From positions 1 to 55,040 of the forward strand of contig JBAYJE010000005.1 in assembly GCA_041665265.1 (NCBI GenBank): a stretch of DNA of 55,040 nucleotides, written 5' to 3'. The DNA comes from Minisyncoccota bacterium (GTDB taxonomy: Bacteria; Patescibacteriota; Minisyncoccia; UBA6257; GWB1-50-10). The position numbers and the translations under genes were made by a program. Under the pieces are notes generated by a model that did no database searches, was not told the origin of the DNA, and saw only the letters and a program-made list of their open reading frames with translations. Shown in pieces: positions 4,701 to 47,528 of the stretch (positions are counted from its first letter, which is position 1; each line of letters starts with the position of its first letter).

Positions 4701-5159
4701 TTACGAGATAGCTATTATTTGTATTCTTTTTGTTATCTTACCAAGAACTGCTTCGCGTATTTCTTTTACACGCGCTCCTATGAGCATTCGTGCAAGAGGC
4801 GCATTATATGAAATAGCGTTTCGATCATCAAATACTATATATCCCCCGATTTCGAATGTTTGGATTTCGTCTGTATCGAGATATTTGATAGTGACCACGC
4901 ACCCTACAATTGCTCGATCTTTTAGTTTCGGCGGTTGGATAAGTCGCGCGTTATGGCGTATTTCTGTGAGTTCTTTAAGTCGAAGGGAGAGCATTTCTTG
5001 TATCCGTCTACCTTCTTCATATGAAAAATTATCATGCCATTCGTTGCCTCCCTCAGAACTCTCCGCGGCTTCTTTTGCCACTTCCTTGATTTGTTCTGTG
5101 AGTTTTTTGATTTCGTCGTTTAATACGTTTAAATCTTTTTCAAGAAAAAAGAATGTCAT
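4701..5159 (-). CDS. GreA/GreB-family paralog
   Basis: MTFFFLEKDLNVLNDEIKKL...SSEGGNEWHDNFSYEEGRRIQ... and ISYNAPLARMLIGARVKE are collinear with the GreA at 2373. A near-consensus promoter lies inside the longer ORF-track version, so I call the start at M37. Confidence 0.75.
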   Translation of the reverse strand: MTFFFLEKDLNVLNDEIKKLTEQIKEVAKEAAESSEGGNEWHDNFSYEEGRRIQEMLSLRLKELTEIRHNARLIQPPKLKDRAIVGCVVTIKYLDTDEIQTFEIGGYIVFDDRNAISYNAPLARMLIGARVKEIREAVLGKITKRIQIIAIS

Positions 5160-5211
5160 TTTCTTATGCCCCCTTTGCTCGATAGAATTATGATGTGAAA
5201 TTGCTTTGCAT

Positions 5212-5240
5212 ACTATAGTATTTATAACTACTATTGTCAA
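5212..5240 (-). promoter_or_regulatory. sigma70-type promoter for the GreA paralog
   Basis: The minus strand reads TTGACA-17 nt-TATAGT. Confidence 0.55.
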
Positions 5241-5318
5241 TTGAATGACAGATAGTAATAAAACCATGTTTGCAACAGAAGTGCGCGTGCATCGTTATAC
5301 CTTATGAAAGGAGATACT

Positions 5319-7337: not shown

Positions 7338-7685
7338 ATGTCTGTAAAAACACGTTGGTATCTTGAAGCGGTAGACAGTAACGCGGAAAAAGTTCTCAAT
7401 GGGTATCCTGAATTTCAGAAGCATATGCTGGATGAGGATATTCTTCACAACATAAAGGACTACAAAGAAGGGCGTCATGACGAAGTGTATCGTTGTGACT
7501 ATGATTTTGTGGTGCAATTTCGGATGTATGTAAATATACTGAGCAAAGAAAACGGAGACGAGTATCAATTCATCGACCTTTTTCGAGTGTTTGTTCGTTA
7601 TGGTAGAGATCCAATGAAAGACGCGACAAAACTTTTTAAGGTTCGTCGTTGGAAGAAAAAACTTCTTGTAAATAAGAAGAAATAA
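7338..7685 (+). CDS. hypothetical protein
   Basis: GGAGG precedes the ATG at 7338. Basic C-terminus, terminator downstream, no recognisable motif. Confidence 0.5.
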   Translation: MSVKTRWYLEAVDSNAEKVLNGYPEFQKHMLDEDILHNIKDYKEGRHDEVYRCDYDFVVQFRMYVNILSKENGDEYQFIDLFRVFVRYGRDPMKDATKLFKVRRWKKKLLVNKKK

Positions 7686-7690
7686 TATAT

Positions 7691-7723
7691 AGCGCCATAC
7701 AACTTGTGTGGCGCTTCTTTTTT
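7691..7723 (+). terminator. intrinsic terminator
   Basis: Stem AGCGCCA/TGGCGCT followed by TCTTTTTT. Confidence 0.75.
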
Positions 7724-7740
7724 GTGGTTTACTGGTCAGG

Positions 7741-8832
7741 ATGGGTATATATGCAAAAAGGATAGTACTTGTTGTGTGCGCACTTTTAATTAGTTTTTTG
7801 GGGTTTCGTTACGGATATATATTAAAAGGCATACCAGGATTTTCTGGTTTTTTTGCGTCTATTTCAGAAGTTCCTATAGCTATGGTAATACCTCCAGTCC
7901 CCATGCCCGAAGAGGTTCGCGCGATATACATAACGGCAGCTACTGCAGGAAGTAAAAAACGTGTTGAAGAGCTCATTACGTTTGTACACAAAAGTGGCAT
8001 GAACGCGATTGTGGTGAATGTGAAAGATGGCGATGGTGTGTATTTGGGAAGTGGTATGCAGGAGTTTGCAGAGCGATTAAGAAAAGAAAATATATATTCA
8101 ATTGCGCGTATTGTTGTATTTCAAGATAATTATTTTGCAAAACAGCATTTTGAGTTTGCATTGAAAACGGCGAGTAGTACACTTTGGCGTGGAAATGGTT
8201 ATGCGTGGGTTGATCCTTCAATTCAGAAAGTGTGGGAGTATAACGCCGAGATTGCTCTGCGCACATTCAAGAGCGGATTTTCAGAAGTGAACCTTGATTA
8301 TGTACGTTTTCCTGCGGATGGTAATTTGGGTGATATTGTATATCCCGCATATGATGGTAAGACAAAAAAATGGAAAGTTATTGCTGATTTTTCAGCATAT
8401 ATGAAAAATAAAATAAAGGAGCAATATCCTGAACGAATACTCTCACTTGATATATTTGCTTACAGTTTTCTTATCGATGGCGATTTAGGCATTGGTCAAC
8501 GTTTTGCAGACCTTATTGATTTGTACGATGTAATTGCGCCAATGGTGTATCCTTCGCATTTTTCTCCTGGTAATTTCGAATACGAGAATCCTGCAGAAGA
8601 ACCCTATGAAGTGGTGCTTGCGACACTTCAAAACGGAATTTTTGCTATGGAGGAACAAGGGAAATATACGATAATACGGCCGTGGCTTCAGGACTTTAAT
8701 ATGGGTGCAATATATAATCGTGAAAAAATACAGGCAGAAATAAAGGCGGTGCGCGACGTAGGACTGACCACTGGTTGGATGATGTGGAATCCATCGAATC
8801 GGTACGATATTTCAAAATACGAGGTGAAGTAA
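7741..8832 (+). CDS. putative glycoside-hydrolase-like TIM-barrel protein (GHL10/DUF4015-like), membrane anchored
   Basis: N-terminal TM helix, then MNAIVVNVKDGDGV... and NLDYVRFP..., the pattern I associate with DUF4015. The ORF-track GTG start lies inside the upstream terminator. Confidence 0.55.
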   Translation: MGIYAKRIVLVVCALLISFLGFRYGYILKGIPGFSGFFASISEVPIAMVIPPVPMPEEVRAIYITAATAGSKKRVEELITFVHKSGMNAIVVNVKDGDGVYLGSGMQEFAERLRKENIYSIARIVVFQDNYFAKQHFEFALKTASSTLWRGNGYAWVDPSIQKVWEYNAEIALRTFKSGFSEVNLDYVRFPADGNLGDIVYPAYDGKTKKWKVIADFSAYMKNKIKEQYPERILSLDIFAYSFLIDGDLGIGQRFADLIDLYDVIAPMVYPSHFSPGNFEYENPAEEPYEVVLATLQNGIFAMEEQGKYTIIRPWLQDFNMGAIYNREKIQAEIKAVRDVGLTTGWMMWNPSNRYDISKYEVK

Positions 8833-8845
8833 GCGTGAAGGCAAA

Positions 8846-8876
8846 TAAAAATCCCGCCGAAGCGGGATATTTTTTA
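8846..8876. terminator. bidirectional intrinsic terminator
   Basis: AAAAATCCCGCCGAAGCGGGATATTTTTT lies between convergent genes. Confidence 0.8.
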
Positions 8877-9596
8877 TGACTCATTGTAAAGGATATTAGC
8901 AAGCTCTTCGCTTGCTCGAAGGACTGCCTGTTCCAATTCCTCAGTGGATGAAACGTAATGTATGGAGTCCCCAATATAAATATCGACCGGACCACAATTA
9001 AAATTGGGAATGAAGCGTCCTGGCGCGAGAGCAAATTCAGCTCCTTCCACCCATATAGGAATAATAATGGGGCGTTCGACATGTTTTGAAATAAATTTAA
9101 CGCTTTCCGAGAATTTTCCAATTCCTCTTCCACGAGGTGAGAAAACTTTTATCTTGCGTTTGTGGGTTCTTCCGCCCTCAGGAAAGAGTATTACCGTTCC
9201 CTTTTCATCTTGTATAATCTTTATGATTTTTCGCAACACAAGAACATTTTGAGAAGCATTTTCAGCATTGCGGTCAATAAGAATCATGCGTGCGTGGCGA
9301 AATATTTTGAAATACCAATACTTCATAATATTTTCTCGATCAGGCGTATTCCAAGGAATGTATTTGAATGGTTGCAAAATGCATCGAGGGAAAAAGAGGA
9401 AGGGGAGTAATACGGTTTCAAAAAGGGATGGATGATTTGATATTATTAGCATCCCTTGTTTGTGATGCCACAATTTTTCTAATCCATGAATACGTATTTT
9501 TCCGCGCATACGCAGCCAAAGTATTGGTGGACCCATGATAAGCATCACAGCATAGACCGCTGCAAGAAATTTTAATTTTTCAAGAAATTGCTTCAT
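8874..9596 (-). CDS. plsC: lysophospholipid (1-acyl-glycerol-3-phosphate) acyltransferase-like
   Basis: NHPSLFE (HX4D/E-type block) and FPEGGRT blocks typical of PlsC-family acyltransferases. N-terminal TM helix. GGAGA SD. Confidence 0.65.
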   Translation of the reverse strand: MKQFLEKLKFLAAVYAVMLIMGPPILWLRMRGKIRIHGLEKLWHHKQGMLIISNHPSLFETVLLPFLFFPRCILQPFKYIPWNTPDRENIMKYWYFKIFRHARMILIDRNAENASQNVLVLRKIIKIIQDEKGTVILFPEGGRTHKRKIKVFSPRGRGIGKFSESVKFISKHVERPIIIPIWVEGAEFALAPGRFIPNFNCGPVDIYIGDSIHYVSSTEELEQAVLRASEELANILYNES

Positions 9597-9671
9597 CGCT
9601 GTCTCCGTATATTAATGAATGAAAATGACTGGCGTTATTATGCTCATTTTCTTCTTTTTTTGCAATTGTAT

Positions 9672-9693
9672 AAAAAATCCCGCCGAAGCGGGA
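9672..9693 (-). terminator. intrinsic terminator (same hairpin as at 8851)
   Basis: TCCCGC-CGAA-GCGGGA with a T-run on the minus strand. Confidence 0.7.
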
Positions 9694-9695
9694 AT

Positions 9696-10289
9696 TTATT
9701 GAAGAACTCTTTTTCGTGGCAAGAAGAGTAAGCCGGTAATAAATCCGATGACTAGCACCATTGCAACTGGATAAAGAGCAATTGCAAATATCCATTCTCG
9801 GATTGCAAGTACATTTGCGATAGCGCCAAGGAAGAAAAGAGCCCATGCGGTTTTATCTTCTTTTTGTGGTTCATAATACACTTTTCGTACGGTCGGCATT
9901 GATGCAGAGAGATCGACGAGTGTAGTCGTGACGAGTGCCACAAGAGCAGAATCGAAGATGAACCAAAAGAAGAGACTTAAGGCCGCGACGAATATGCATT
10001 TTTGATCAAATGGCGTCCATCCCCCTTCTCCATATTTTATGGAGAAGAGTGCGATTATGGAGCTGCCAATCACATATCCGATTGGGACCCAGATAGTTTC
10101 TCGCGCACCAGATGCATATGAACTTACTGCGATGATGCCGCTTACACCTGCCCAGATGAACCATGATGCGCGATTCGGCTTAGTTCTTTTATTAGGATCA
10201 GGATTCAGAATTGAGCGAATGTAGGGCACATATGAGGCGATTGAGAAGAGTCCTGCAAGTACGCCAAAAATTTCTTTAATGTCGTACAT
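9696..10289 (-). CDS. polytopic membrane protein (PQ-loop-like?)
   Basis: About 6-7 TM segments. The N-terminal FSIASYVPYIRSIL is reminiscent of PQ-loop repeats. TGGAGA SD. Confidence 0.5.
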   Translation of the reverse strand: MYDIKEIFGVLAGLFSIASYVPYIRSILNPDPNKRTKPNRASWFIWAGVSGIIAVSSYASGARETIWVPIGYVIGSSIIALFSIKYGEGGWTPFDQKCIFVAALSLFFWFIFDSALVALVTTTLVDLSASMPTVRKVYYEPQKEDKTAWALFFLGAIANVLAIREWIFAIALYPVAMVLVIGFITGLLFLPRKRVLQ

Positions 10290-10373
10290 AACATCTCCAG
10301 ACGTGAATGAATTTTAGTGAACTGGGAATATTCTATCATTAATTTATTAAAAAGTCAATGATTGTGGAGATTC

Positions 10374-10402
10374 TTGCATAAAGTATAAAAAGGTTGTAAT
10401 GT
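10374..10402 (+). promoter_or_regulatory. sigma70-type promoter
   Basis: TTGCAT-17 nt-TAATGT. Confidence 0.45.
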
Positions 10403-10450
10403 ATGGCTATTCGTTCGTTCACATTTTAATAACAACTATAGGAAACCACC

Positions 10451-10873
10451 ATGATGACAGTTGTTCATAGATTAGCGCACATTTTCTCGATTCAAACTCG
10501 TCATAATACTACAAAGAAGATAGAAGAGGTGCTGTGTCAGAATCTGAATCTCTCAAGGGAAGAAAAAGTAGAAGTGCTTGCGGAAAGCAAAAATGAGGGA
10601 GAAAAGGCCATTATTAAAACAAAGGATGGTGTTCGTAAGTTATGGATTCGTCATTTTGGAAATCAAATTGAATTGCTTGTTCAATTTGGTAACAACGATA
10701 AAAAGTCGATGGTTGATGAATTCTTACTCTTTTCTGAGCACAGCAATCTGCCGAAAAGATCAGAAATTCCTATTGTGTTGAATTTCCCTTGTGGACGGAA
10801 GATTCCTGCCCATTTTCCGAACGGTGATGAATGTGAGACCGTCTCTGTATATGAGAAAAATCAGGAAGAATAA
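10451..10873 (+). CDS. hypothetical protein
   Basis: 140-aa ORF with a terminator downstream and no recognisable motif. Confidence 0.45.
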   Translation: MMTVVHRLAHIFSIQTRHNTTKKIEEVLCQNLNLSREEKVEVLAESKNEGEKAIIKTKDGVRKLWIRHFGNQIELLVQFGNNDKKSMVDEFLLFSEHSNLPKRSEIPIVLNFPCGRKIPAHFPNGDECETVSVYEKNQEE

Positions 10874-10880
10874 AGAATAG

Positions 10881-10909
10881 CCCACTCCAGTAATCGGAGT
10901 GGGATTTTT
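10881..10909 (+). terminator. intrinsic terminator
   Basis: Stem CCCACTCC/GGAGTGGG followed by ATTTTT. Confidence 0.8.
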
Positions 10910-10974
10910 ATTATGATACACACAGATTTTGTTCATTTTGCAAAGCATAGAGGGGAGCGTGTACACTAAGAGCA

Positions 10975-12684
10975 ATGGCAAAGGAGGTAGATCTTATTAA
11001 GGAAAAATTACCCGTACTCGATTTTTTGCGTTCCTATATTGCGGTGACTCCTGCAGGAAGGAATTTTAGAGCGCTCTGTCCTTTTCATCCTGAAAAAACA
11101 CCCTCATTTATTATTTCTCCTGATAGGGGGCGATGGCATTGTTTTGGATGTGGCGAAGGAGGAGATGTCATTACTTTTGTAATGAAGTATGAGAATCTCG
11201 AATTTCCTGAGGCGCTTCGCTTTCTTGCCGAGCGCGCAGGTATTACCTTGCCCTCACTTAATCCTCAATATCAGCGTGAGTTCGGAGTACTTTATGATGC
11301 AAATGAAGCCGCAAAAGATTTTTTTACTGCGGAGCTTTTGAAAAATTCTGCAGCGCTTGAATATTTTACAAGTCGTGGATTAACAAATGAAACAATAAAA
11401 GAGTTTTCTCTTGGGTTTTCGCCAGGAGGAGATGCAATGACACTCGCGCTTATCAAAAAAGGATTTGACGTAAATGATATTGCGCGTGCAGGACTCGCGT
11501 ACAAAACTGCGCGTGGATTATTCCGTGACCGATTTGAACATAGAATAATGTTTCCACTTGCGAATCATGTGGGGAAGACGGTAGCATTTACCGGGCGTAT
11601 TTTTGGATCACAGACCATGCCTGAGGGAGAGATTCCTAAATATATGAATAGTCCTGAAACGCCTATATTTAATAAATCACGCATGCTCTATGGATTGCAC
11701 AAATCAAAGATTGAAATTGCACGCGCGAAAGCGGTGGTTGTGGTAGAGGGGCAGATGGATTTTCTAATGTTGTGGCAGTGTGGAGTGCGTAATGCAGTGG
11801 CAGTTTCTGGTACTGGATTTACTGAGTATCATTTAGAACGATTGCGCCGGCTTGCTGACACGGTGTATGCGAGTTTTGATAATGACGCCGCAGGAGTAAA
11901 AGCAATGGAGCGCATGCTCGCTATGCTTTCGCAACAGGATTTTCATGTGAAGGTTCTCCAATTTGGAATATATAAGGATCCTGCCGAGGCACTTCAGAAG
12001 GAGCCCGAGTATATGCAAGGTGCATTGGAAAAAGCAGTGCCCGCATTCCAATTTCTTTTCAAAAAATATTTTAGTGCAGAAATGGTGCGTAGTGATTTGG
12101 CACTAAAAAAGCGCATAGTGGCGCACATGCTGGAACTTATCTTTCTAGTAAAAAATTCAGTAGAACGAAGCGAATGGATGAGAGAACTTGCATCCGCATC
12201 ATCTGTTTCGGAAAATGCACTTCGCGAAGAATTTGAGAAACTCGAGGAGAAAAAAGGAAATACCGAGAAAGAGAAAGAACCTTCGCGGGATGCAGGCTCT
12301 TTGTATGAAGATCGCACTAACCGTATTGCAAAACGGCTTCTCGCGCTCGCATTTACAAATGAGGCATTAAAGGGTATAATCACCGAAAATAAAGAATATA
12401 TGCCAAAGGTTTTCTCGCAAATGCTTGAACATCCTGAGGCGGAATCCGCTGAATTGTTTCAAATGCAATCAAGCTATTTATTTGGAACGGCGGATGAAAA
12501 AGATGTTCGTAACGAATGTTATGAGCTCATAAAACAATTAAAGCTTGAATATTTCAAGCGAGAGCAGGAAGACCTGAAGAGGTCTATCAATGCGGCGGAG
12601 GCAAGCGGCGATGAGGCGAAATTTCTCGAGGCGATGGGGAAATTTCAAGAACTTTCGAAAAAAATGAATGAATTAAAATCTTAA
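10975..12684 (+). CDS. dnaG: DNA primase
   Basis: Zn-finger [11 protein letters not shown]...[17 protein letters not shown] block [10 protein letters not shown]...DNDAAG. Confidence 0.93.
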
Positions 12685-16597: not shown

Positions 16598-18478
16598 ATG
16601 GCAGAGGATCCACGCGATGTAGTATATTTCGGCCGTACCAATTTCCGTAATCGGGAGCAGTTATTTGGTATACGCCGAAGAGATAGGAGACAGCACATGT
16701 ATGTCATAGGACAGACCGGTACTGGGAAGTCTGCGATGATTCACAACATGATTATGCAAGATATCGCTAATGGCGAGGGCGTGTGTCTTGTGGACCCCCA
16801 TGGTGAAAATGTAGAAGGACTTCTTTCAAAGATTCCTGAAAATCGCATGAATGATGTGGTGTATTTCAACCCTGCTGATGCAGATTTTAATATCGGATTT
16901 AATGTACTTGAATTACCCGATCCAAAATATAAACATCTCGTGGCGTCAGGTCTTATGGGAATTTTCACAAAGATTTGGTCAGGGGTTTGGTCTGCGCGTA
17001 TGGAGTACATTATGAATAATGCAGTTTTGGCACTTTTAGATACTCCAGGAACCACACTTCTTGGTATTACCCGCATTCTTGTGGATAAGGAGTATCGCCA
17101 GAAAATTGTGGGAAACGTAAAAGACCCAGTGGTGAAAGCATTCTGGATAAATGAATTTGAAGAATGGAAGGATCAATTTCGTAATGAAGCTATCGCACCT
17201 ATTCAAAATAAAGTGGGTCAATTTCTTTCGACCGCACTCGTAAGAAATATTGTGGGGCAATCAAAAAGTACTATTGATATTCCTGAGATAATGAACTCGG
17301 GCAAGATTTTTCTTGTGAATGTTTCTAAGGGACGCATTGGCGAAGATAATTCAGCATTACTTGGTGCTATGCTTATTACTAAAATTCAGCTTGCGGCGAT
17401 GGAACGTGTGAGAATTCCTGAGGCGGAGCGTCTCGATTTCTATCTTTATGTCGACGAATTTCAAAATTTTTCCACTGATTCATTTGCAAACATTCTCTCT
17501 GAGGCACGTAAGTATGGTTTGAATCTTGTGCTTGCACATCAATATGTGGGTCAGCTTATCACGGATACTTCAACGAAAGTGCGTGATGCGGTGTTTGGTA
17601 ACGTGGGTACCATGATTGTGTTTCGTGTGGGAGCAACGGACGCAGATTTTCTAGAAAAAGAATTTGAACCAGAGATTGGAGTTCAAGATATGGTGAATTT
17701 GCCGAACTATCATATTTATCTCAAATTGTTGTCGCAAGGACAACGAAGCAGACCTTTTTCTGCAACTACACTTCCACCACTCAAGATGAAATCGTCAGAA
17801 GATACCGAGGAGAAGGTTATTCAGAATTCACGGAAGCGGTATGCGCGACCACGATGGGCCGTTGAAGACGAAATTAATGTGTGGAGCGGCATGGGGCAGA
17901 GTGCAGAAAATGAGGCTGATTGTATGAATTGCGGGAAGCATATTAAATTGCCGTTTACTCCAATTCCGGGGCGTCCTGTCTACTGTCCTGAGTGTTATGC
18001 AAAAGTGAAATCAGGAGAAGTGGCGCCCGCACGTGTAATGCCAGAGGGAGGCGCATTTCAACGAAAACCTTCTTCGAGAAGTGTAGATGAGCTTGCGAGC
18101 CTTGGTATTGAATTTAAACCACGAGGCGCATCTGAAGAAGAGCCTTCTCATCCCACAGCAAGAGAAGAAATAAGAGAGGCTCGTCCTGCGCGACGCGAAG
18201 AATATAGGCCTCGTCCATCGTTAACCCCACATCTTCCTCCAAGGAGTAGTGAGCATGGGAGCGCGTCGAGAGGATCTGCACGACCAGAGCGACGCCCATC
18301 GATAATTCGTGAGAGGCCTGCGCCTGTTGCACCAAAACCTCCAGAACAAAAATCATCGTTGAGTCTTTCAGAATTGAAGCCGATGGAAAAAAAGGAATCG
18401 AAACACGTGCACGATGATAGTCATGTAGATGAATTGCGTGCGGCACTTGGTGCAGCACTAAAGAAAATGAAAGAATAA
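16598..18478 (+). CDS. VirD4/TraD-like (type IV coupling protein family) P-loop ATPase with C-terminal zinc ribbon and disordered tail
   Basis: Walker A GQTGTGKS, Walker B YLYVDEFQNF, LVLAHQY. CxxC...CxxC at nt 17921-17995 (CMNCGK...PVYCPECY), then a ~160-aa Arg/Pro/Glu/Ser-rich tail. Confidence 0.75.
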   Translation: MAEDPRDVVYFGRTNFRNREQLFGIRRRDRRQHMYVIGQTGTGKSAMIHNMIMQDIANGEGVCLVDPHGENVEGLLSKIPENRMNDVVYFNPADADFNIGFNVLELPDPKYKHLVASGLMGIFTKIWSGVWSARMEYIMNNAVLALLDTPGTTLLGITRILVDKEYRQKIVGNVKDPVVKAFWINEFEEWKDQFRNEAIAPIQNKVGQFLSTALVRNIVGQSKSTIDIPEIMNSGKIFLVNVSKGRIGEDNSALLGAMLITKIQLAAMERVRIPEAERLDFYLYVDEFQNFSTDSFANILSEARKYGLNLVLAHQYVGQLITDTSTKVRDAVFGNVGTMIVFRVGATDADFLEKEFEPEIGVQDMVNLPNYHIYLKLLSQGQRSRPFSATTLPPLKMKSSEDTEEKVIQNSRKRYARPRWAVEDEINVWSGMGQSAENEADCMNCGKHIKLPFTPIPGRPVYCPECYAKVKSGEVAPARVMPEGGAFQRKPSSRSVDELASLGIEFKPRGASEEEPSHPTAREEIREARPARREEYRPRPSLTPHLPPRSSEHGSASRGSARPERRPSIIRERPAPVAPKPPEQKSSLSLSELKPMEKKESKHVHDDSHVDELRAALGAALKKMKE

Positions 18479-22610: not shown

Positions 22611-24074
22611 ATGCTTCCGTATGAGATTTTCTTCTTTGGAGTAATATTTTTTCTGGGTGGTGTTCTTGCTGCAAGCGCAGGGATACCACCTTTTTTTGTT
22701 ACCACATTTGGAATGATAGTAAGCATTCTTTGTGTTGTTCTACGAATTCGTACGAAAAATACACGCATATCGTGGTATGCAGGACTTATCCTTTTTCTTG
22801 TTGTGGGCTCACTTTATTATCGAATCGATAATACGCGATTTTTTGCGTCACCTGTGGTGTTTGAAACCTCAATAACTTTTTCAGGTGTAGTTGAAGAAGA
22901 TCCTGTTATTAAAGAAAGTGGCCAGGAAATAGTAGTAGGTATTACTGTGCCGTATCATGCACGTATTCTTGTGCGTTTACCCGCATATCCTCGATTTGCG
23001 TATGGAGATGTGATTCACGGAAAGGGGAAAATACAGAAGCCTTCAACGAGTTCATACGCACATTACCTCGAGAAGGAACGTATTCGTGGCACGATGAGTT
23101 TTGCAAGCGTAAAAAAAGTTGGACAAGGAGGTGGTTTCTCATTTCGCACTGCACTTTTTGCAATAAAACACAGAATTATGAATGCGTTTGTAAGCGTACT
23201 ACCTCCTGAAGAGGCAACTTTTTTGAGTGGGCTTACTATTGGTGCGCGTGGTAGTTTTTCTAAGGAATTAAAAGACAATATGCAGAAGAGTGGCACCACA
23301 CATCTTGTGGCACTTTCGGGGTACAACATTACTATTCTTGTTTCAGTAGCTATGAGCTTTTTATTATTTTTGTTCTCGAGACGTACTGCATTTATTTTTA
23401 CAATACTTCTTATTGTTGCATTTGTGGTTATGACTGGCGCAGAAGCATCCGTGGTACGTGCTGCAATCGTAGGATTTTTAGCACTTCTCGCATCTGAAAT
23501 TGGGCGCGTGTATGATATTCGCAATGCGGTCTTATGTGCAGCACTTGTAATGGTTCTTATAAATCCAAAAGTGCTTGCATTTGATATTGGATTTCAACTC
23601 TCTTTCCTTGCACTTCTCGGTATCGTGTATCTTCATCCCGCATTGCAACGTTTTCTGAGTATTGCGGAGAGCACTACCATTTTTTCGTGGAGGGAAAATA
23701 TATTGACTACACTCGCAGCACAACTTGCAGTGACACCAATTCTTATTGCAAATTTTGGATTCGTCTCTTTGATCTCTCTTTTTGCTAATGTTGCTATCTT
23801 AGAATTCATTCCAATTACGATGGGTCTTGGATTTCTTATCGCGGGAGTATCTTTTTTGTCTCATACAATTGCACAAGGCCTTGGATTTTTCGTTTCTCTA
23901 TTTTTAAAAATAGAGCTTTTTCTCATTTCATTTTTTGCTCATATACCAATTCCCGTGTCGTTTAAAGCAGGCGTGGTATTCACTATTGTATGGTATGTAG
24001 GACTTGGGGTATTGGTATGGCGCTATACTATACAAGATGCCGGACGAAATATTCAATTGGCTCAAAACCAATAA
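22611..24074 (+). CDS. comEC: ComEC/Rec2 DNA-uptake channel, membrane (competence) domain part
   Basis: Polytopic. GTTHLVALSGYNI, VVMTGAEASVVRAA and FQLSFLA are typical of the ComEC competence domain, and the N-terminal part is OB-like. Confidence 0.8.
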   Translation: MLPYEIFFFGVIFFLGGVLAASAGIPPFFVTTFGMIVSILCVVLRIRTKNTRISWYAGLILFLVVGSLYYRIDNTRFFASPVVFETSITFSGVVEEDPVIKESGQEIVVGITVPYHARILVRLPAYPRFAYGDVIHGKGKIQKPSTSSYAHYLEKERIRGTMSFASVKKVGQGGGFSFRTALFAIKHRIMNAFVSVLPPEEATFLSGLTIGARGSFSKELKDNMQKSGTTHLVALSGYNITILVSVAMSFLLFLFSRRTAFIFTILLIVAFVVMTGAEASVVRAAIVGFLALLASEIGRVYDIRNAVLCAALVMVLINPKVLAFDIGFQLSFLALLGIVYLHPALQRFLSIAESTTIFSWRENILTTLAAQLAVTPILIANFGFVSLISLFANVAILEFIPITMGLGFLIAGVSFLSHTIAQGLGFFVSLFLKIELFLISFFAHIPIPVSFKAGVVFTIVWYVGLGVLVWRYTIQDAGRNIQLAQNQ

Positions 24075-24927
24075 AAAACAGGCGATTCTTATTGTGTCTG
24101 CACTTATAATACTCGACGTCACTCTCTTTTTGGGTATTTTTTCTGATCTGGGAGTACAAAATAAATTAGTGCTTCATTTTTTTGATGTGGGTCAGGGTGA
24201 TTCGGAATTTGTGGTGTTACCAGGTGGTGTAAAGATGCTTATTGATGGAGGCCCCACAAACGGGCGGGTTATGAATGAACTTGCACGATCTATGAGTCAG
24301 GGGGACCGCTATATTGATCTTGTACTTATGACTCATCCGCAACTCGATCATTTCGGTGGACTTATTGATGTGGCAAAACAATATACTATTGGTACATTTA
24401 TTTGGAGCGGACGCGAAAGCGATGCGCCTGCATTTCAGGAATTAAAAAAAGAATTGCGTGGTCAGAATGCACATATAATTTCACTTAGTGCGGGGGATAG
24501 TATTCACAATGAAAAGAATGACATATCTATTCTTTCTCCTCACGTGAAATTTTTGAATGATAAGGATTTAAACAATTCATCATTAGTAATCCGTGTGAGT
24601 TCGGCAAGTACCACCGCACTTTTTGTGGGTGATATCGGTGCAAACGTTGAAGAATATCTTGTCCGCAATTTTGACATACAGACAGATATTCTCAAGGTTC
24701 CTCACCATGGTTCGCGCTTCTCATCAACTGATAAGTTTCTTCATGAAGTAAGCCCGAAGCTAGCAATTATTGAGGTGGGAAAAAATAGTTATGGTCATCC
24801 TACACAAGAAGTGCTCACCCGTTTGAGTGCAATTGGAGCTCGTATTCTTCGGACCGATTTGAATGGCGCAACTGAAATAATCAGTGAAGGGACACGAAGC
24901 AGCGTCCATCTTTCGAGAGAAAGGTAG
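24037..24927 (+). CDS. ComEC-type metallo-beta-lactamase domain protein (separate ORF, +1 frame)
   Basis: TM anchor, then FFDVGQGDSEFVV, MLIDGGP, HPQLDHFGG, VPHHGS and GHP. Overlaps the preceding ORF by 38 nt, or 71 nt from the TTG at 24004. Confidence 0.75.
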   Translation: MPDEIFNWLKTNKKQAILIVSALIILDVTLFLGIFSDLGVQNKLVLHFFDVGQGDSEFVVLPGGVKMLIDGGPTNGRVMNELARSMSQGDRYIDLVLMTHPQLDHFGGLIDVAKQYTIGTFIWSGRESDAPAFQELKKELRGQNAHIISLSAGDSIHNEKNDISILSPHVKFLNDKDLNNSSLVIRVSSASTTALFVGDIGANVEEYLVRNFDIQTDILKVPHHGSRFSSTDKFLHEVSPKLAIIEVGKNSYGHPTQEVLTRLSAIGARILRTDLNGATEIISEGTRSSVHLSRER

Positions 24928-28316: not shown

Positions 28317-28331
28317 GCTTTCTTAGGAACT

Positions 28332-28448
28332 GCGGGTTGCATAGGATGCGACACTGCTGTTTTCTAAGCTCATTCGCATTCACTAAGAAAACAGGGAGCC
28401 CGCGGTTCGATTCCTCATCCCGACAAAAATACCCTTACGGGTATTTTT
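28332..28448 (+). other. tRNA-like / degenerate tRNA remnant region followed by a terminator hairpin
   Basis: 7-bp acceptor-like stem GCGGGTT (28332-38) / AGCCCGC (28397-403) enclosing a GCAT-AGG-ATGC hairpin and a 9+2-bp hairpin (28357-28394). Then a GGTTCGATTCC T-loop-like box without a matching T-stem, then ATACCC-TTAC-GGGTAT plus TTTT. Confidence 0.3.
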
Positions 28449-28493
28449 CTAGTCTTGCACACAAACACTACTGTGTACTGCCGGGAAGCGAAC

Positions 28494-28576: not shown

Positions 28577-28660
28577 CCCGTTCAATTCCCAGCAGCCCTA
28601 AAACAAAAAGCCTCTCAAAGGCCTTTTGTTTTTTAGTCGGGCTGCCGGGAATTGAACCCG
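28577..28660. repeat. imperfect ~84-bp palindrome: inverted copy of the tRNA-Pro 3' half plus flank
   Basis: The left arm CCCGTTCAATTCCCAGCAGCCC (28577-28598) is the near reverse complement of GGGCTGCCGGGAATTGAACCCG (28639-28660). The spacer is itself palindromic. Confidence 0.8.
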
Positions 28661-28707
28661 GTCTACATGCACCCCATGCATGCGTACTACCGGTATACTA
28701 CAGCCCG
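28637..28707 (-). tRNA. tRNA-Pro (anticodon GGG)
   Basis: Manual cloverleaf: acceptor CGGGCTG/CAGCCCG, D stem GTAT/GTAC, anticodon stem CATGC/GCATG with loop AT-GGG-GT, T arm CCGGG-TTCAATT-CCCGG, discriminator A. No encoded CCA. Confidence 0.85.
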
Positions 28708-29111: not shown

Positions 29112-29140
29112 TTGACTTATTAATGATTTTATCGTAGTAT
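29112..29140 (+). promoter_or_regulatory. sigma70-type promoter
   Basis: TTGACT-17 nt-TAGTAT. Confidence 0.5.
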
Positions 29141-29212
29141 TTTTCTCGTGTAATATATACACATGCTCTTTCACATTAATTTATATAACCAATCACTTTT
29201 TGGAGGTTTGTT

Positions 29213-30574
29213 ATGAAGTTCTTTGTACGTTTATGTATCATCGTATGTGCATTTTTTATGCTTCCATTTTCGGCGTTCTCTCAAACAGAACCCCCAAGGG
29301 AAACGTGTTCTTCAATGATTTGGCCTCATGCGGATTATCGTATGTGGGTGAATCGGGAGTATGTAATCCCGGGATCATTTATCCAAGTTCCTATGATGTT
29401 CGGTCTTCCGCCATCTGACACCGTACTCGTTGCAGACGCATCGGCTGTATTCAATCGATGGATTATGCCGCAATGGGGATGGTGGTTCAATCAGTGGAAT
29501 TTCTGTCCGTCTTCGGTCAGTTCGCAGCCTGATTTTAAATCAGATCGATTTAGAGTAATCGTTGTGGGATATCCTCACATCGGCGCAGGTGAAGTCGAAG
29601 TCGGTTCATTTATGGCACAAGTGGACAGGGATGCTATTCCTGGTGACACTATCGTCATTGAGCATCTGTTTGCAATTAACGACAGAGAAGTTGAACGACA
29701 TAAAGCAGAATTATATGTTCATCCTCGCGTAGTTTATGCGGATTTGAACGGAGATTCACTTGTGACAGGAATGGATGCTGCACTTATCTACCGCTTTCTT
29801 GTGGAAAATGGTGCGACTATCACTGTAAAGCAATTACTTACTTCGGATCTTGATGGTAATTACAAAATTGGATGGTACGATTTATATCTCTGTCTCTCGT
29901 ATATTTTGGGGCAGCGTTCGGGATTTCCCGTCGAGGGATATAATACAGAAGGAAAAGGAATGGTTACGGAAAAAGTTCCTCTTATTATGGTTCCATTTGG
30001 CAGCGCTACCGCAATCTCTTTTGGGACTAACGAGATAACGAACGGAGAACTCGAGTTTAGGATACCGCAAGGAGCGACCCTTGAACCTACGAGCGCGTTC
30101 TCAGGATCTCTTTCTGATATTGCATATGGATCGAATGGTGTTGTGAAAGTACGGTTTGCAAAAGGTGTTTCTATGACCGGTGCGCTTTTTACCATACGCA
30201 ATGCATCACCTGAACAGATTGCGGTATGTGGGAAGGTCAATCGAGGAAATCTAATTGATCCGATCATAGAGCGCGCAACAGGAGTGGAAGGAAAGACAAT
30301 CATTCCGCACATTTTTTCACTTGAGCAGAACTATCCGAACCCGTTTAATCCGACAACAGTGATTGCATTCTCTGTTCCTTATGCGTCGCGCGTGACCCTA
30401 AAGGTATACAACCTTCTTGGTCAGGAAGTCGCAACGCTTATGGAAGGAAGTGAACAATCCGCAGGCATGCATTCTGTTCCATTCGATGCTTCGCATCTCG
30501 CATCTGGTGTCTATCTTTATAAGATGAACGCAGGGGAGTTTGTTATGACGCGGCGAATGGTTCTTCAGAAATAG
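29213..30574 (+). CDS. secreted protein with dockerin-like repeats and a T9SS (Por) type A C-terminal sorting domain
   Basis: Signal peptide ...LPFSAFS/Q. DLNGDSLVTGMDAALIYRFL and DLDGNYKIGWYDLYLCLSYIL. C-terminus EQNYPNPFNPTTVIAFSVPYASRVTLKVYNLLGQEVATL...SGVYLYKMNAGEFVMTRRMVLQK. GGAGG SD. Confidence 0.8.
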   Translation: MKFFVRLCIIVCAFFMLPFSAFSQTEPPRETCSSMIWPHADYRMWVNREYVIPGSFIQVPMMFGLPPSDTVLVADASAVFNRWIMPQWGWWFNQWNFCPSSVSSQPDFKSDRFRVIVVGYPHIGAGEVEVGSFMAQVDRDAIPGDTIVIEHLFAINDREVERHKAELYVHPRVVYADLNGDSLVTGMDAALIYRFLVENGATITVKQLLTSDLDGNYKIGWYDLYLCLSYILGQRSGFPVEGYNTEGKGMVTEKVPLIMVPFGSATAISFGTNEITNGELEFRIPQGATLEPTSAFSGSLSDIAYGSNGVVKVRFAKGVSMTGALFTIRNASPEQIAVCGKVNRGNLIDPIIERATGVEGKTIIPHIFSLEQNYPNPFNPTTVIAFSVPYASRVTLKVYNLLGQEVATLMEGSEQSAGMHSVPFDASHLASGVYLYKMNAGEFVMTRRMVLQK

Positions 30575-30585
30575 ATTTATTTTTT

Positions 30586-30615
30586 ATCCCCTCAGCAATG
30601 AGGGGATTTTATTTT
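30586..30615 (+). terminator. intrinsic terminator
   Basis: 9-bp stem ATCCCCTCA/TGAGGGGAT followed by TTTTATTTT. Confidence 0.8.
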
Positions 30616-30693
30616 GACAAAAACATCAAAAAGTTGTTTACTGGAGTCAGTAATATTCACAATTATTTAATCATCTTTTGATTGGAGGCAGTT

Positions 30694-31242
30694 ATGAAGT
30701 GTAATAGTACGCGTTTCAGTATTGTCGGTATTTTTTTATCACTTCTCATTACGGGATATATTATTCCATTTTTCTCTTCACGTGAGACACGACCAACATT
30801 GGAAGAGGGTATTGTGCGCGTGCAGATATTTTACAACGAACAATGTGATTTGAGAGGGGAGATAAATGAAAATTACACGAAAGTGAAAGAAAGAATGAGT
30901 AGATATGAACGGAAAATAGTTGATAGTCTCTTTTTGGAAAATCGTCAGATGCTTGATAGCAGTGCACTGATGATTGCTGGTGCCTTTCCCGACTCCTTGG
31001 ACTTCGATGTTCGAAAGAATCTATTGTTGAGTGCAATGAGAGAGATGAAACAGGCACTCAGACCTCTTGTTCGCATATGCACAATTCTCGCACCTTATTT
31101 AGGTGAAGATGAAAGTGAAGAAGTAAAACAGCTAGTGTTGAATAATAAAAAAGCGACTCATTACGAGTCGCTTTTATTTTTTATCCAATCACTGTTTCTT
31201 TATATATTTTCTTCCCAAAATCGAACTCATAAAATTTCATAG
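30694..31242 (+). CDS. membrane-anchored hypothetical protein
   Basis: GGAGG SD and an N-terminal TM helix. The last ~30 codons read through a bidirectional terminator and overlap the convergent gene. Confidence 0.45.
   Translation: MKCNSTRFSIVGIFLSLLITGYIIPFFSSRETRPTLEEGIVRVQIFYNEQCDLRGEINENYTKVKERMSRYERKIVDSLFLENRQMLDSSALMIAGAFPDSLDFDVRKNLLLSAMREMKQALRPLVRICTILAPYLGEDESEEVKQLVLNNKKATHYESLLFFIQSLFLYIFSSQNRTHKIS
31146..31181. terminator. bidirectional intrinsic terminator
   Basis: 9-bp stem AAGCGACTC/GAGTCGCTT flanked by A and T runs. Confidence 0.7.
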
Positions 31243-31813
31243 TGTCTCCCGAGCCCACCTGAAGAATGAATGTGTTTTTATCGGTAGGGAGCTTAAAGAG
31301 AAGAGCCCCACTTACTGCACTCTTAGGTGGCATAGAAGAAAATGAGCCAATCACTTGCGAGCTTTTTTGGTTATTACCATCGAGGTTTAATACTTGAATA
31401 AGGTCATCAAAGGAAATGGCGGTATAGGATGATGCTTGTGCGGTAAATATCTTTACTCCAATACGTATGGTGCCATCCGAAAGTTTTGTGGCGCGTTCTA
31501 TGGTAACCGTAAGAGGTGATTGAGGAGAAAGTGCTGAACTTGAAGGAGTTTCAAAGAGAATTGCAGAGGATATTACAATACCGCCTTCTTCTGGTTCGGC
31601 AGGAGGAGTTGAAGTTGGGATAGGTGAGGAAATTGTCTCCGTGCCCGGTGTTTGAGGTGTTGTGACAGCCTGATTCTTCATTTCAAGAGTGAGTTCAACA
31701 TTTTTTACACTACTCGAAAGCATGGACATCTTATCAAAGACAATATAGAACCCCGTCATTACGAGGAATGCAAAGAGAATGAGAATAACATAGATTATTT
31801 TTTCGTTGCGCAT
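31181..31813 (-). CDS. membrane-anchored secreted hypothetical protein
   Basis: N-terminal TM helix, a Thr/Pro/Ser linker and a beta-rich C-domain. I call the start at MRNEKIIYV. Confidence 0.55.
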   Translation of the reverse strand: MRNEKIIYVILILFAFLVMTGFYIVFDKMSMLSSSVKNVELTLEMKNQAVTTPQTPGTETISSPIPTSTPPAEPEEGGIVISSAILFETPSSSALSPQSPLTVTIERATKLSDGTIRIGVKIFTAQASSYTAISFDDLIQVLNLDGNNQKSSQVIGSFSSMPPKSAVSGALLFKLPTDKNTFILQVGSGDTMKFYEFDFGKKIYKETVIG

Positions 31814-31865
31814 GACTTTATTATACACTTCGATTGCTTATGAGTGTGGTATAGTGGAAATATCT

Positions 31866-35807: not shown

Positions 35808-36773
35808 ATGAAAAACCTAACTCAATTCCTTGCAGTATGCATGGTTATTTTGGTTTTCGGAGCATCGTCGATTGCTTCGGCTCAGGTTTCTACTTCTGTT
35901 TCTACTTCTACATTTTCCAATCTTGGCACTTTGCCAGATAGTTCTTTTTATTTTTTAAAATCGTGGAAAGAACAAATCCAACTTTTTTTCACGTTTGATA
36001 TGGAAAAGAAAGCTGAACAATATTTACACCTTGCTGATGTGAGATTAGCCGAGTATCAAAAAATGATTGAGAAGGGAAAACAAGCGATTGCGGAAAAAAC
36101 GTTGACGAAGTACGAGAATCAATTAACTCGCGCATTGGAAAAGGCAGAGGAGCTTAAAACAAAGAGCAATGAGAAAGCAAACAATGTAAGAGCTAAAATA
36201 GAAGAGGTCTCTACAAAGCATGTTCGGATTCTTCAAGAAAATTTTGCAAAAGCATCTGAAGGTGCAAAACAAGGACTGGAACGAGCACTTGAAGCTTCAA
36301 GAAAAGGAATTGAGAAAATTCAAGAAAAAGATAAGAGCGAAAATGAAGAATCAACTTCAACTTCCGTCTCAACTACTTCTCGTTTCAATTTCACTTTTAA
36401 ATATGGTGTTGGAGCAATAAATGAATTGAATACTTTTGATAAAACCTTCACAAAGGACATGATTATGGGGTCCCCAATAAAAGTAAACTTAAAATTATCT
36501 GAGAATGAACTTAATAATATTTATGAGAAAATAAATGAACTAAGATTGTTTAGTAAAAGCCCCGAATCTTCTCAGGCTAATGCGTTTGTTACTCCTTGCT
36601 CCAGTTATTCTTTGAAAGTGCAGGAAAATACTGATCAGAAAGAATTATCTTGGAATAATTGTCGTGGGAAAATTAGTGACGAGTTTCAACAATTTAGTAA
36701 TTTTGTTGTTTCTCTTATTGAATCAAAAGAAGAATATAAGAATTTACCAGTTGCAAAGGGAGGGTATCAATAA
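35808..36773 (+). CDS. secreted coiled-coil protein (DUF5667-like N-domain)
   Basis: Signal peptide, then LPDSSFYFLKSWKEQIQLFFTFDMEKKAEQYLHLADVRLAE, as I recall for DUF5667. A TATAAT sits 6 nt before the ATG. Confidence 0.6.
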   Translation: MKNLTQFLAVCMVILVFGASSIASAQVSTSVSTSTFSNLGTLPDSSFYFLKSWKEQIQLFFTFDMEKKAEQYLHLADVRLAEYQKMIEKGKQAIAEKTLTKYENQLTRALEKAEELKTKSNEKANNVRAKIEEVSTKHVRILQENFAKASEGAKQGLERALEASRKGIEKIQEKDKSENEESTSTSVSTTSRFNFTFKYGVGAINELNTFDKTFTKDMIMGSPIKVNLKLSENELNNIYEKINELRLFSKSPESSQANAFVTPCSSYSLKVQENTDQKELSWNNCRGKISDEFQQFSNFVVSLIESKEEYKNLPVAKGGYQ

Positions 36774-39508: not shown

Positions 39509-39943
39509 ATGGAAAAAATAATCGCAAAAAAAATGAAAATGGCGCAGATTTGGAAAGACGGGAACGTCGTTCCTGTAACACCGCTTCTTTGCCAAACGGG
39601 CGATATTGACGCATTCCTCTCATCCCTTAAGGAAGGGGAGATGGTTGCGGTTTCTGGAACAAGTCGTGGTAAAGGTTTTCAGGGTGTAGTAAAGCGTCAT
39701 GGTTTTCATGGTGGTCCAAAAACTCACGGTCAAAAAGATAGACTACGTGCTCCTGGTTCTCTTGGTCCTACTGCACCACAGCGTGTGGTAAAGGGCAGGA
39801 AAATGGCAGGACACACTGGCAATAAACGTGTGACGGTAAAGAATCTTGTGGTTGCAAAAATTCAGCCAGAGGAAAAGATTGTCATGGTACGTGGTGCAGT
39901 TCCTGGTAATAAGGGAGGGAAGATTGAAATTCGAAATAAATAA
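39509..39943 (+). CDS. rplC: 50S ribosomal protein L3, unusually short (144 aa)
   Basis: The N-terminus MEKIIAKKMKMAQIW..VPVT and the C-terminal two-thirds GTSRGKGFQGVVKRHGF.GGP.THG...RAPGS.G....RV.KG.KMAGH.G...VTV.NL are L3. About 60 aa between them are missing relative to E. coli L3. Confidence 0.9.
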   Translation: MEKIIAKKMKMAQIWKDGNVVPVTPLLCQTGDIDAFLSSLKEGEMVAVSGTSRGKGFQGVVKRHGFHGGPKTHGQKDRLRAPGSLGPTAPQRVVKGRKMAGHTGNKRVTVKNLVVAKIQPEEKIVMVRGAVPGNKGGKIEIRNK

Positions 39944-46639: not shown

Positions 46640-46993
46640 ATGAACGCACGAAAGCAATTAATTCAAAAAAGAGGCAGAAGGGCAAATCGCGTACGAGCGA
46701 CGGTGCGTGGTTCTGAGGTACGCCCACGTCTTTCTGTATTTCGAAGCAATAAATTTACTGCCGTGCAGCTTATTAATGATGTGAGCGGTAAGACACTCGC
46801 ACAAGCATCTTCACGAGAATCAAAGAAGAAAATGACAAAGACCGAAGGAGCAGAATTTGTAGGAACGACAATTGCAGAGCGCGCAAAAGCGTTAGGCGTG
46901 TCTGCAGTAGTATTTGATCGTGGTTCATATCGCTACCATGGTCGCGTTAAAGCGCTTGTCGAAGCGGCACGTAAGGGAGGTCTTCAAATTTAA
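46640..46993 (+). CDS. rplR: 50S ribosomal protein L18
   Basis: [20 protein letters not shown]..., [27 protein letters not shown]. Confidence 0.96.
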
Positions 46994-46997
46994 ATAT

Positions 46998-47528
46998 ATG
47001 TTTAATTCACGAGGGCAAAAAAATGAAGGAAGAGGTCCACGAAGACCATTTGTAAAGCGCGTTACCGAATTCAAAGAGCGCGTACTTGAAGTGCGTCGCG
47101 TAACTCGTGTGGTTGCAGGAGGAAAGCGTTTTAGTTTCCGTGCAACAGTAGTAGTAGGTGACATGAAAGGACGTGTGGGAATTGGTATTGCAAAAGGACT
47201 GGATTTTGCAGCCGCAGTGCAAAAAGCACAGCGTCAAGCAGAAAAGAGTGTAGTAACAATTGCACTTGTTGAGAGCCGAACAGTTCCTTATGAAGTAGAA
47301 GCAAAATATGATGCAGCTCGAGTACGTATTAAGCCAGCGAAAAAAGGGCATGGCCTTATTGCAGGAGGTTCTCTTCGTGTAGTACTTGAACTCGTAGGAA
47401 TAAAAGATGTGTCAGCAAAAATATTAGGTCGCACAAAGAACAAAATTGCAAACGCTCAGGCAGGCATTGAGGCGTTGCGCATGATTCGTCCTATTGTAAA
47501 AGCCCCCGCTGTTTCTGTAGTTAATTAA
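46998..47528 (+). CDS. rpsE: 30S ribosomal protein S5
   Basis: VLEVRRVTRVVAGGKRFSFRATVVVGD..GRVGIG.AKG, GHGLIAGGSLRVVLELVGIKD. The ATG at 46998 follows the rplR stop. Confidence 0.95.
   Translation: MFNSRGQKNEGRGPRRPFVKRVTEFKERVLEVRRVTRVVAGGKRFSFRATVVVGDMKGRVGIGIAKGLDFAAAVQKAQRQAEKSVVTIALVESRTVPYEVEAKYDAARVRIKPAKKGHGLIAGGSLRVVLELVGIKDVSAKILGRTKNKIANAQAGIEALRMIRPIVKAPAVSVVN

Follow-up and report, generated by a model that had tools for sequence, protein, structure and literature searches.

A strongly conserved T9SS-type sorting domain ends a hypervariable secreted protein in Candidatus Paceibacterota, a lineage regarded as having no outer membrane

The 55,040-nucleotide stretch of contig JBAYJE010000005.1 analysed here (the window) encodes, at positions 29213 to 30574, a modular secreted protein of 453 amino acids (aa) that ends in a type A C-terminal sorting domain (CTD) of type IX secretion systems (T9SS). 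The real finding is that this tail is highly constrained and has kept its consensus unchanged in a cell that has no known reader for it. The genome is that of a Candidatus Paceibacterota bacterium, within the candidate phyla radiation (CPR). Members of the CPR are regarded as having no outer membrane, and their type IV secretion systems are of the monoderm type (bioRxiv 10.1101/2025.01.22.634366); the T9SS has been described as confined to the Fibrobacterota–Chlorobiota–Bacteroidota (FCB) superphylum (PMC11205867). The tail is real, old and strongly conserved, and thus probably has another, undescribed job. The reading that we favour, with a probability of about one half, is that of a Sec-exported, hypervariable surface or adhesion protein in which the CTD fold is used without a T9SS for retention or presentation at the symbiont surface, with calcium-dependent docking by its dockerin and cohesin-like part. 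The modules of the protein, as delineated by profile searches, AlphaFold2 (AF2) models with their predicted local distance difference test scores (pLDDT), and Foldseek, are the following; Ig stands for immunoglobulin.

29213 to 30574, forward strand: coding sequence of the modular secreted protein, 453 aa, stop codon included
29213 to 29284, forward strand: Sec-type signal peptide MKFFVRLCIIVCAFFMLPFSAFSQ, aa 1–24, no lipobox, judged by inspection
29339 to 29719, forward strand: N-terminal beta-sandwich, aa 43–169, cohesin-like at the fold level only (AF2 and Foldseek)
29735 to 29917, forward strand: dockerin module, aa 175–235 (PF00404, family profile, AF2 helices)
29975 to 30268, forward strand: Ig-like beta-sandwich, aa 255–352 (AF2 pLDDT about 90–95)
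30278 to 30343, forward strand: flexible linker, aa 356–377 (pLDDT <50 in both AF2 models)
30332 to 30571, forward strand: T9SS type A C-terminal sorting domain, aa 374–453 (TIGR04183, PF18962, AF2)

The tail is a genuine T9SS type A CTD fold. When hidden Markov models were run against the protein, both TIGR04183 (42.4 bits, cutoff 23, aa 374–452 of 453) and PF18962 (37.8 bits, cutoff 27, aa 374–449) scored above their cutoffs, and in the AF2 model built from a 42-sequence family alignment (pLDDT 81.6, predicted template modelling score 0.65) the tail forms a compact, Ig-like sandwich of seven strands spanning aa 381–451, with a pLDDT of about 85–90. A first AF2 model from eight sequences was discarded (pLDDT 54.7; its Foldseek matches were generic antibodies). 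At the other end of the protein, the model places the leader in a helix of aa 2–16 that is followed by a disordered stretch, and Q24 is near-invariant among 42 family members. The dockerin carries two canonical Ca2+ loops of 12 residues each, DLNGDSLVTGMD (D177–D188) and DLDGNYKIGWYD (D212–D223), with a helix after each loop (AF2 dockerin helices at 186–197, 205–211 and 221–231), and D188, D212, G215 and D223 are invariant or nearly so in the same 42 members. On the single sequence PF00404 reaches 22.3 bits, marginally below its cutoff of 22.9; the family profile matches dockerins of solved structure (8x39 and 4uyq) with E values from 4.5e-10 to 1e-8, and PF00404 is matched by 17 of 34 family members (best E = 2.2e-6). 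An earlier note, made from the sequence alone, had called this open reading frame (ORF) with its Sec leader, two dockerin repeats and a type A sorting domain, and all of these calls are borne out, the dockerin through the family more than through the single sequence.

The N-terminal domain calls for more caution. A Foldseek search of the PDB returned one single-domain match to cohesin 5nrk_A (target-normalised template modelling score 0.64, root-mean-square deviation 4.3 Å, 146 columns) beside many generic Ig matches, and the domain aligned to 5nrk_A was assigned by inference from size. The Pfam cohesin profile (PF00963) matches neither the query nor any of 34 family members, and because no sequence profile supports a cohesin, "cohesin-like" is used here as a statement about the fold only. 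Further Foldseek matches in the PDB are tandem-Ig adhesins and S-layer proteins (PrgB, antigen I/II, 7ptp).

The genome is that of a CPR bacterium. In clusters at 90% identity around the EF-G, the SecA and the target protein of the window, members are named Candidatus Paceibacterota by NCBI, and when the N-terminal 368 aa were scanned against GTDB species representatives, the only locus recovered was the related L004 (JBAYKY010000007.1), whose record bears the title 'MAG: Candidatus Paceibacterota bacterium' (MAG, metagenome-assembled genome). The ribosomal traits are those of CPR genomes: S5 (46914–47528) is directly followed by L15 (47536–47958) with no L30, and uL3 (39509–39943) has 144 aa and aligns to positions 97–202 of a 202-position bacterial model, its C-terminal half. 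AspRS has 494 aa and fits a 590-aa model in two pieces, and AlaRS is the short form of 590 aa. The earlier description of a Patescibacteria-type genome with no L30, a short L3 and a reduced AspRS is therefore correct. The truncation of uL3 is itself conserved, with 144–145 aa across four loci (the window, L001, L004 and L011), and the missing half would not fit into the 157 nt that follow S10. Besides ordinary CPR housekeeping genes, the remaining window encodes a VirD4-like coupling protein, a protein with DUF5667 and several membrane proteins of small size.

Within this lineage the gene is a long-term resident. The order target gene, reverse-strand membrane protein of 209–222 aa, M50 peptidase and S12-S7-EF-G-EF-Tu-S10-L3-L4 recurs in L001 (JGI metagenome), L002 (NCBI metagenome), L004 (GTDB MAG) and L011 (GCA_043723165.1), which are separate assemblies; the genes in L001, L002 and L004 are full-length orthologues of 71–91% identity. 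The L004 orthologue is 91% identical (89% over the N-terminal 368 aa) and its locus is collinear with the window, the upstream intergenic DNA matching base for base up to the start codon. In L011, a much more distant relative, the slot reads AspRS, NDK, a 61-aa reverse gene, the target, a 222-aa reverse gene, M50 and S12 onward; between this locus and the window, EF-G is 76% and EF-Tu 88% identical, the target ectodomain 24% and the target tail 63%. Composition gives little sign of a foreign origin, as the earlier note had judged from GC content: codon usage is ordinary (z = -0.69), GC is 44.6% in the target vs 40.9% in the window, and the tetranucleotide distance, which falls at the 96th percentile of windows, is slightly raised. 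Since separate assemblies repeat the gene order, the chimeric join that the earlier note had listed as one explanation is refuted. Recent transfer is unlikely, because the slot has been kept across a divergence of 76% EF-G identity and the codon usage is native.

An exhaustive HMMER search with an N-terminal profile from which the CTD was left out matched about 45 representatives (50% identity clusters) end to end, and 48 proteins, comprising 42 of these representatives and six members already in hand, end in a CTD (79–148 bits). The other HMMER matches are multi-dockerin proteins that align over the dockerin region only, and full-length relatives of the N-terminal 350 aa are found in this exhaustive search solely within the family. 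Word-indexed searches with N-terminal profiles gave 7 proteins each, so their candidate filter missed relatives. The members share one architecture of cohesin-like domain, dockerin, Ig-like domain and CTD. In the 16 related loci that were fetched, the genes fall into at least five synteny classes, all amid housekeeping genes and CPR-like; for the third to fifth classes below, this description is based solely on gene content. L006 is of insufficient length for a class to be assigned.

L28/M50/S12 slot: the class of the window
CSD, gene, split TruB, HisRS: L005, L007, L010
IleRS, PrsW, HSP20, Grx, 1–2 gene copies, YtxH, PPDK, enolase: L003, L008, L009
beside P-type ATPase and DnaG: L012, L013
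beside CysRS, Dus, VirD4-like protein and DnaX: L014–L016

For the second class, P0121 is likewise named Candidatus Paceibacterota by NCBI.

What evolves in this family, and what does not, is the core of the matter. Nearly all invariant columns in the alignment of 42 members fall in the CTD, making the tail the most conserved module. Against L004, the CTD has a dN/dS of 0.014 at a dS of 0.75, every other module about 0.10 and the whole gene 0.083. The most direct view of the variable part comes from L005 (95–1360) and L010 (920–2146), in which the flanks, the first 33 nt and the last 249 nt of the gene are 99% identical and HisRS is identical; the ectodomain in between, about 945 nt, has no nucleotide similarity, and the proteins are about 35% identical there. 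This is an allele-level cassette swap of the ectodomain in related Paceibacterota. Gene conversion was considered as a cause of tail conservation and rejected, as the tails of the tandem paralogues in L008 are only 72% identical at the nucleotide level; the conservation therefore reflects selection on the protein.

Several further observations concern individual members. The L008 paralogues (7421–11527; 424 and 508 aa) are separated by a lipoprotein-like gene of 281 aa, whose Ig-like match to Kre9/KNH is weak. P0148 is present on at least 23 contigs from several sources, so that its organism appears widespread. P0004 (L002, 919–2238) is missing the first part of the CTD, 18 columns of the alignment that contain the complete NYPNPFNP motif, and has a weak Pfam match; the gap reflects either a deletion that occurs in nature or a mistake in the assembly.

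The tails of this family and those of FCB bacteria have practically one consensus. Tails of the family are 57% identical to one another and 55% identical to FCB tails, the FCB matches among themselves reach 59%, and the tail of the target is 55–71% identical to thousands of CTDs from Ignavibacteria, Bacteroidota and Calditrichaeota. Because the tail matches the FCB consensus, the CTD module was likely captured from FCB bacteria long ago. The family tails partly cluster (neighbour-joining clades of 24/27 and 20/22), and in these trees the pattern would fit a few old captures better than constant re-import. Of the horizontal acquisition proposed in the earlier note, the recent event is thus set aside on the grounds of the conserved slot, the ordinary codons and the lack of full-length relatives outside the family in the searches above, and the old module capture is kept.

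Comparison with known systems helps to place the protein. It resembles T9SS type A cargo of FCB bacteria (of the Ignavibacteria, Calditrichaeota and Bacteroidota-MAG type) in its N-terminal Sec leader, its variable passenger and the beta-sandwich CTD of 80 aa with which it ends, and it shares with such cargo the consensus LEQNYPNPFNP.T.I...P....V.LKVY..LG.EVATLV....AG.H.V.FDAS.L.SGVY.Y...AG.F..TKKM.L.K. It differs from this cargo in its host, a CPR bacterium (Paceibacterota) with no known outer membrane and with no T9SS gene in the window or the related loci examined, and in its passenger, which is a cohesin-like/dockerin/Ig array and not an enzyme. FCB genomes typically carry many T9SS CTD genes, whereas here there is one in the 55-kb window and 1–2 per related locus. 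Non-cellulosomal cohesin/dockerin proteins (type I, PF00404) have in common with the target two EF-hand-like Ca loops with helices and the profile match, and an adjacent sandwich of the target may be cohesin-like in fold; the target has no carbohydrate-active module, no scaffoldin and no sequence-level cohesin match, and is instead fused to a T9SS CTD. The pairing of PF00404 with PF18962 is not unique to the CPR, as P0109, an FCB protein among the matches, has it too. Finally, variable surface proteins of monoderms (LPXTG adhesins, M-protein-like proteins) likewise combine a conserved leader and C-terminal module around a hypervariable, recombining ectodomain, with a tandem Ig-like architecture as in PrgB and antigen I/II. 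The target, by contrast, lacks LPXTG, a transmembrane anchor and SLH/LysM domains, and its C-terminal module is a T9SS-type beta-sandwich with no anchoring chemistry known in monoderms.

Under the reading that we favour, the protein would be exported by Sec to the cell surface, and the tail would not act there as a T9SS export signal, since the CPR has no known outer membrane and the DNA examined holds no T9SS part. By means of the CTD, a conserved C-terminal module, the protein would be held or presented at the surface of the symbiont itself, much as variable surface proteins of Gram-positive bacteria end in a conserved wall anchor. Diversifying selection would act on the variable, outward-facing ectodomain, and the dockerin and cohesin-like part would mediate calcium-dependent docking, either in self-assembly or in attachment to a partner or host. 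Candidates for the dockerin partner are the N-terminal domain of the protein itself and the product of a conserved neighbouring gene:

31181 to 31828, reverse strand: conserved neighbour, 215-aa membrane-anchored protein, Pro/Thr linker, beta-rich ectodomain

This gene is equally positioned in L001, L002, L004 and L011 and its product has no Pfam or PDB sequence match. We consider it a candidate partner or anchor; that it might act as a cohesin-like anchor is a guess. The re-use of the fold for another purpose, one of three explanations offered in the earlier note, is in this form the one that survives best, as a hypothesis. Several points weigh against it. The family CTD consensus is practically the FCB consensus, which is odd if the tail has long served another partner; the cohesin assignment is one fold match with no support from sequence; and neither a partner for anchoring nor a machinery for recognition turned up, the neighbouring gene having no recognisable fold family.

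Host mimicry is a reading that we regard as unlikely. The symbiont would show an FCB-type CTD that is bound, covalently anchored or even processed by T9SS surface parts of an FCB host, such as the PorV shuttle or the PorU/PorZ attachment complex; this binding would tether the symbiont to its host, and the dockerin/cohesin-like part and the swappable ectodomain would link the protein to the symbiont. In its favour, the tail keeps the FCB consensus with no CPR-specific drift, has the identity to FCB domains given above and is the most constrained module of the protein, and Bacteroidota are reported to be over-represented as partners in horizontal gene transfer and as co-occurring neighbours of groundwater Patescibacteria (PMC12455944). 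Against this stands the fact that engagement of PorV by a CTD from outside the cell is not a known route; in addition, conserved ends around a variable middle are more typical of self-anchored surface proteins.

About as unlikely, in our estimate, is a native CTD-dependent pathway in the CPR. The bacteria would then have machinery of their own that recognises the CTD for sorting or anchoring, whether a T9SS-like system that is divergent and cryptic or a sortase resembling PorU that acts at the monoderm envelope, and the proteins would be true cargo of this new pathway. The conservation of leader and tail while the passenger is swapped is what real T9SS cargo families show, the family is kept in at least five genomic contexts and about 45 clusters, and the purifying selection on the tail is very strong. 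However, no T9SS or outer-membrane family is present among the proteins of the 55-kb window, none is listed among the 16 related loci fetched, and none of the genes in the related loci examined is a partner conserved across all synteny classes. The prevailing view of the CPR as having no outer membrane (bioRxiv 10.1101/2025.01.22.634366) and of the T9SS as confined to the FCB group (PMC11205867) also speaks against such a pathway.

Recent transfer of the whole gene from an FCB bacterium, the tail being a functionless leftover, is largely refuted and has very little probability. The identity of up to 71% to FCB tails, the tetranucleotide distance with the raised GC content, and the tRNA-Pro fragments about 500 bp away (below) could be cited for it; the slot conserved across deep divergence, the dN/dS of the tail, the codon usage, the end-to-end matches of the N-terminal 350 aa only in a family of CPR-like context, and the position of those fragments beyond an L28-like gene, not flanking the target, contradict it. 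A chimeric contig or mis-binned FCB DNA can be dismissed almost entirely, with no supporting point found, the gene and the ribosomal protein operon lying on one contig in six assemblies from separate sources and the flanking intergenic DNA being collinear with L004 up to the start codon.

The gene has its own set of candidate expression signals, and a tRNA gene lies upstream.

29112 to 29140, forward strand: sigma-70-like promoter candidate TTGACT-17-TAGTAT, 9/12 consensus matches
29202 to 29206, forward strand: Shine-Dalgarno sequence GGAGG, 6 nt before the ATG, by direct sequence reading
30586 to 30617, forward strand: intrinsic terminator, 9-bp stem at 30586–30607 with 5 GC pairs, then a T-rich tail
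28636 to 28707, reverse strand: tRNA-Pro(GGG)

The Shine-Dalgarno sequence (conserved in L004) and the terminator are as described in the earlier note. The promoter motif that it named is likewise present and fully conserved in L004, but carries little weight, because the AT-rich stretch around it contains many comparable sites (10 observed vs 5.4 +/- 2.2 in shuffles, a mild enrichment). The tRNA fragments it reported are also real: a repeat search finds partial copies of the tRNA-Pro 3' end at 28478–28493 and 28580–28608, one direct (88%) and one inverted (83% complementary). They resemble scars that integration or rearrangement would leave at the tRNA. The tRNA-Pro is about 500 bp from the target, and the fragments lie beyond the L28-like gene (a weak Pfam match); because they fail to bracket the target, a genomic-island model for it was rejected. 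ARAGORN with introns and Rfam at a relaxed E-value call the tRNA-Pro and no other tRNA in the region. L004 carries further short repeats in the tRNA-Pro spacer. Nearby, at 28330–28447, the window contains an element of about 95 nt that combines a T-arm-like GGTTCGATTCC with a hairpin of 12 bp and has a terminator to itself (28429–28447). This element is about 99% conserved with L004, the neighbouring intergenic DNA being heavily rearranged; ARAGORN (introns) and Rfam assign it to no tRNA, tmRNA or known family, and it may be an unannotated small RNA.

Elsewhere in the window, the DUF5667 gene (35808–36773, 321 aa) has the lowest GC content (34%) among the genes tabulated for composition. It sits between fusA and a 224-aa gene preceding tuf, where L004 has no ORF of that size, and is a strain-specific insertion within the str operon region. 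The gene at 16598–18478 encodes a coupling protein of the VirD4/TraD type, which has a zinc finger of the treble-clef kind and a long tail rich in Pro, Arg and Ser, and similar orphan type IV coupling protein genes lie close to family members in L015 and L016; this is consistent with the reported abundance of orphan coupling proteins in the CPR (bioRxiv 10.1101/2025.01.22.634366). ComEC is split into two overlapping ORFs (22611–24074 and 24004–24927), with Competence and DUF4131 domains on the one side and a metallo-beta-lactamase domain on the other, and the split is identical in L004. Two GreA/GreB-like genes (2373–2861 and 4701–5267) lie on opposite strands about 2 kb apart, the second with an N-terminal hydrophobic extension.

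The domain call itself is not new, since the NCBI pipeline already labels orthologues (MFA6365118.1, MFA5838883.1) as "T9SS type A sorting domain-containing protein"; this label is no evidence of a T9SS in such genomes. Our literature search on T9SS sorting domains in CPR, Patescibacteria or Parcubacteria found no paper noting or discussing them. What is new is the setting of these known domains, for in such a lineage and under such an evolutionary regime the function accepted for them cannot apply. The T9SS CTD is usually taken as diagnostic of FCB-type outer-membrane secretion, and here it is strongly selected and vertically kept in a lineage thought to have neither. Either the CTD fold has a second, undescribed function, such as anchoring or partner recognition, or it targets the T9SS of another organism. 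If host mimicry were true, this CPR group would have its first defined mechanism of attachment, and a secretion signal would for the first time be seen to work between species. For the attachment of ultra-small CPR symbionts to their hosts, a hypervariable, cassette-swapping cohesin-like/dockerin protein that keeps its tail conserved is a concrete candidate.

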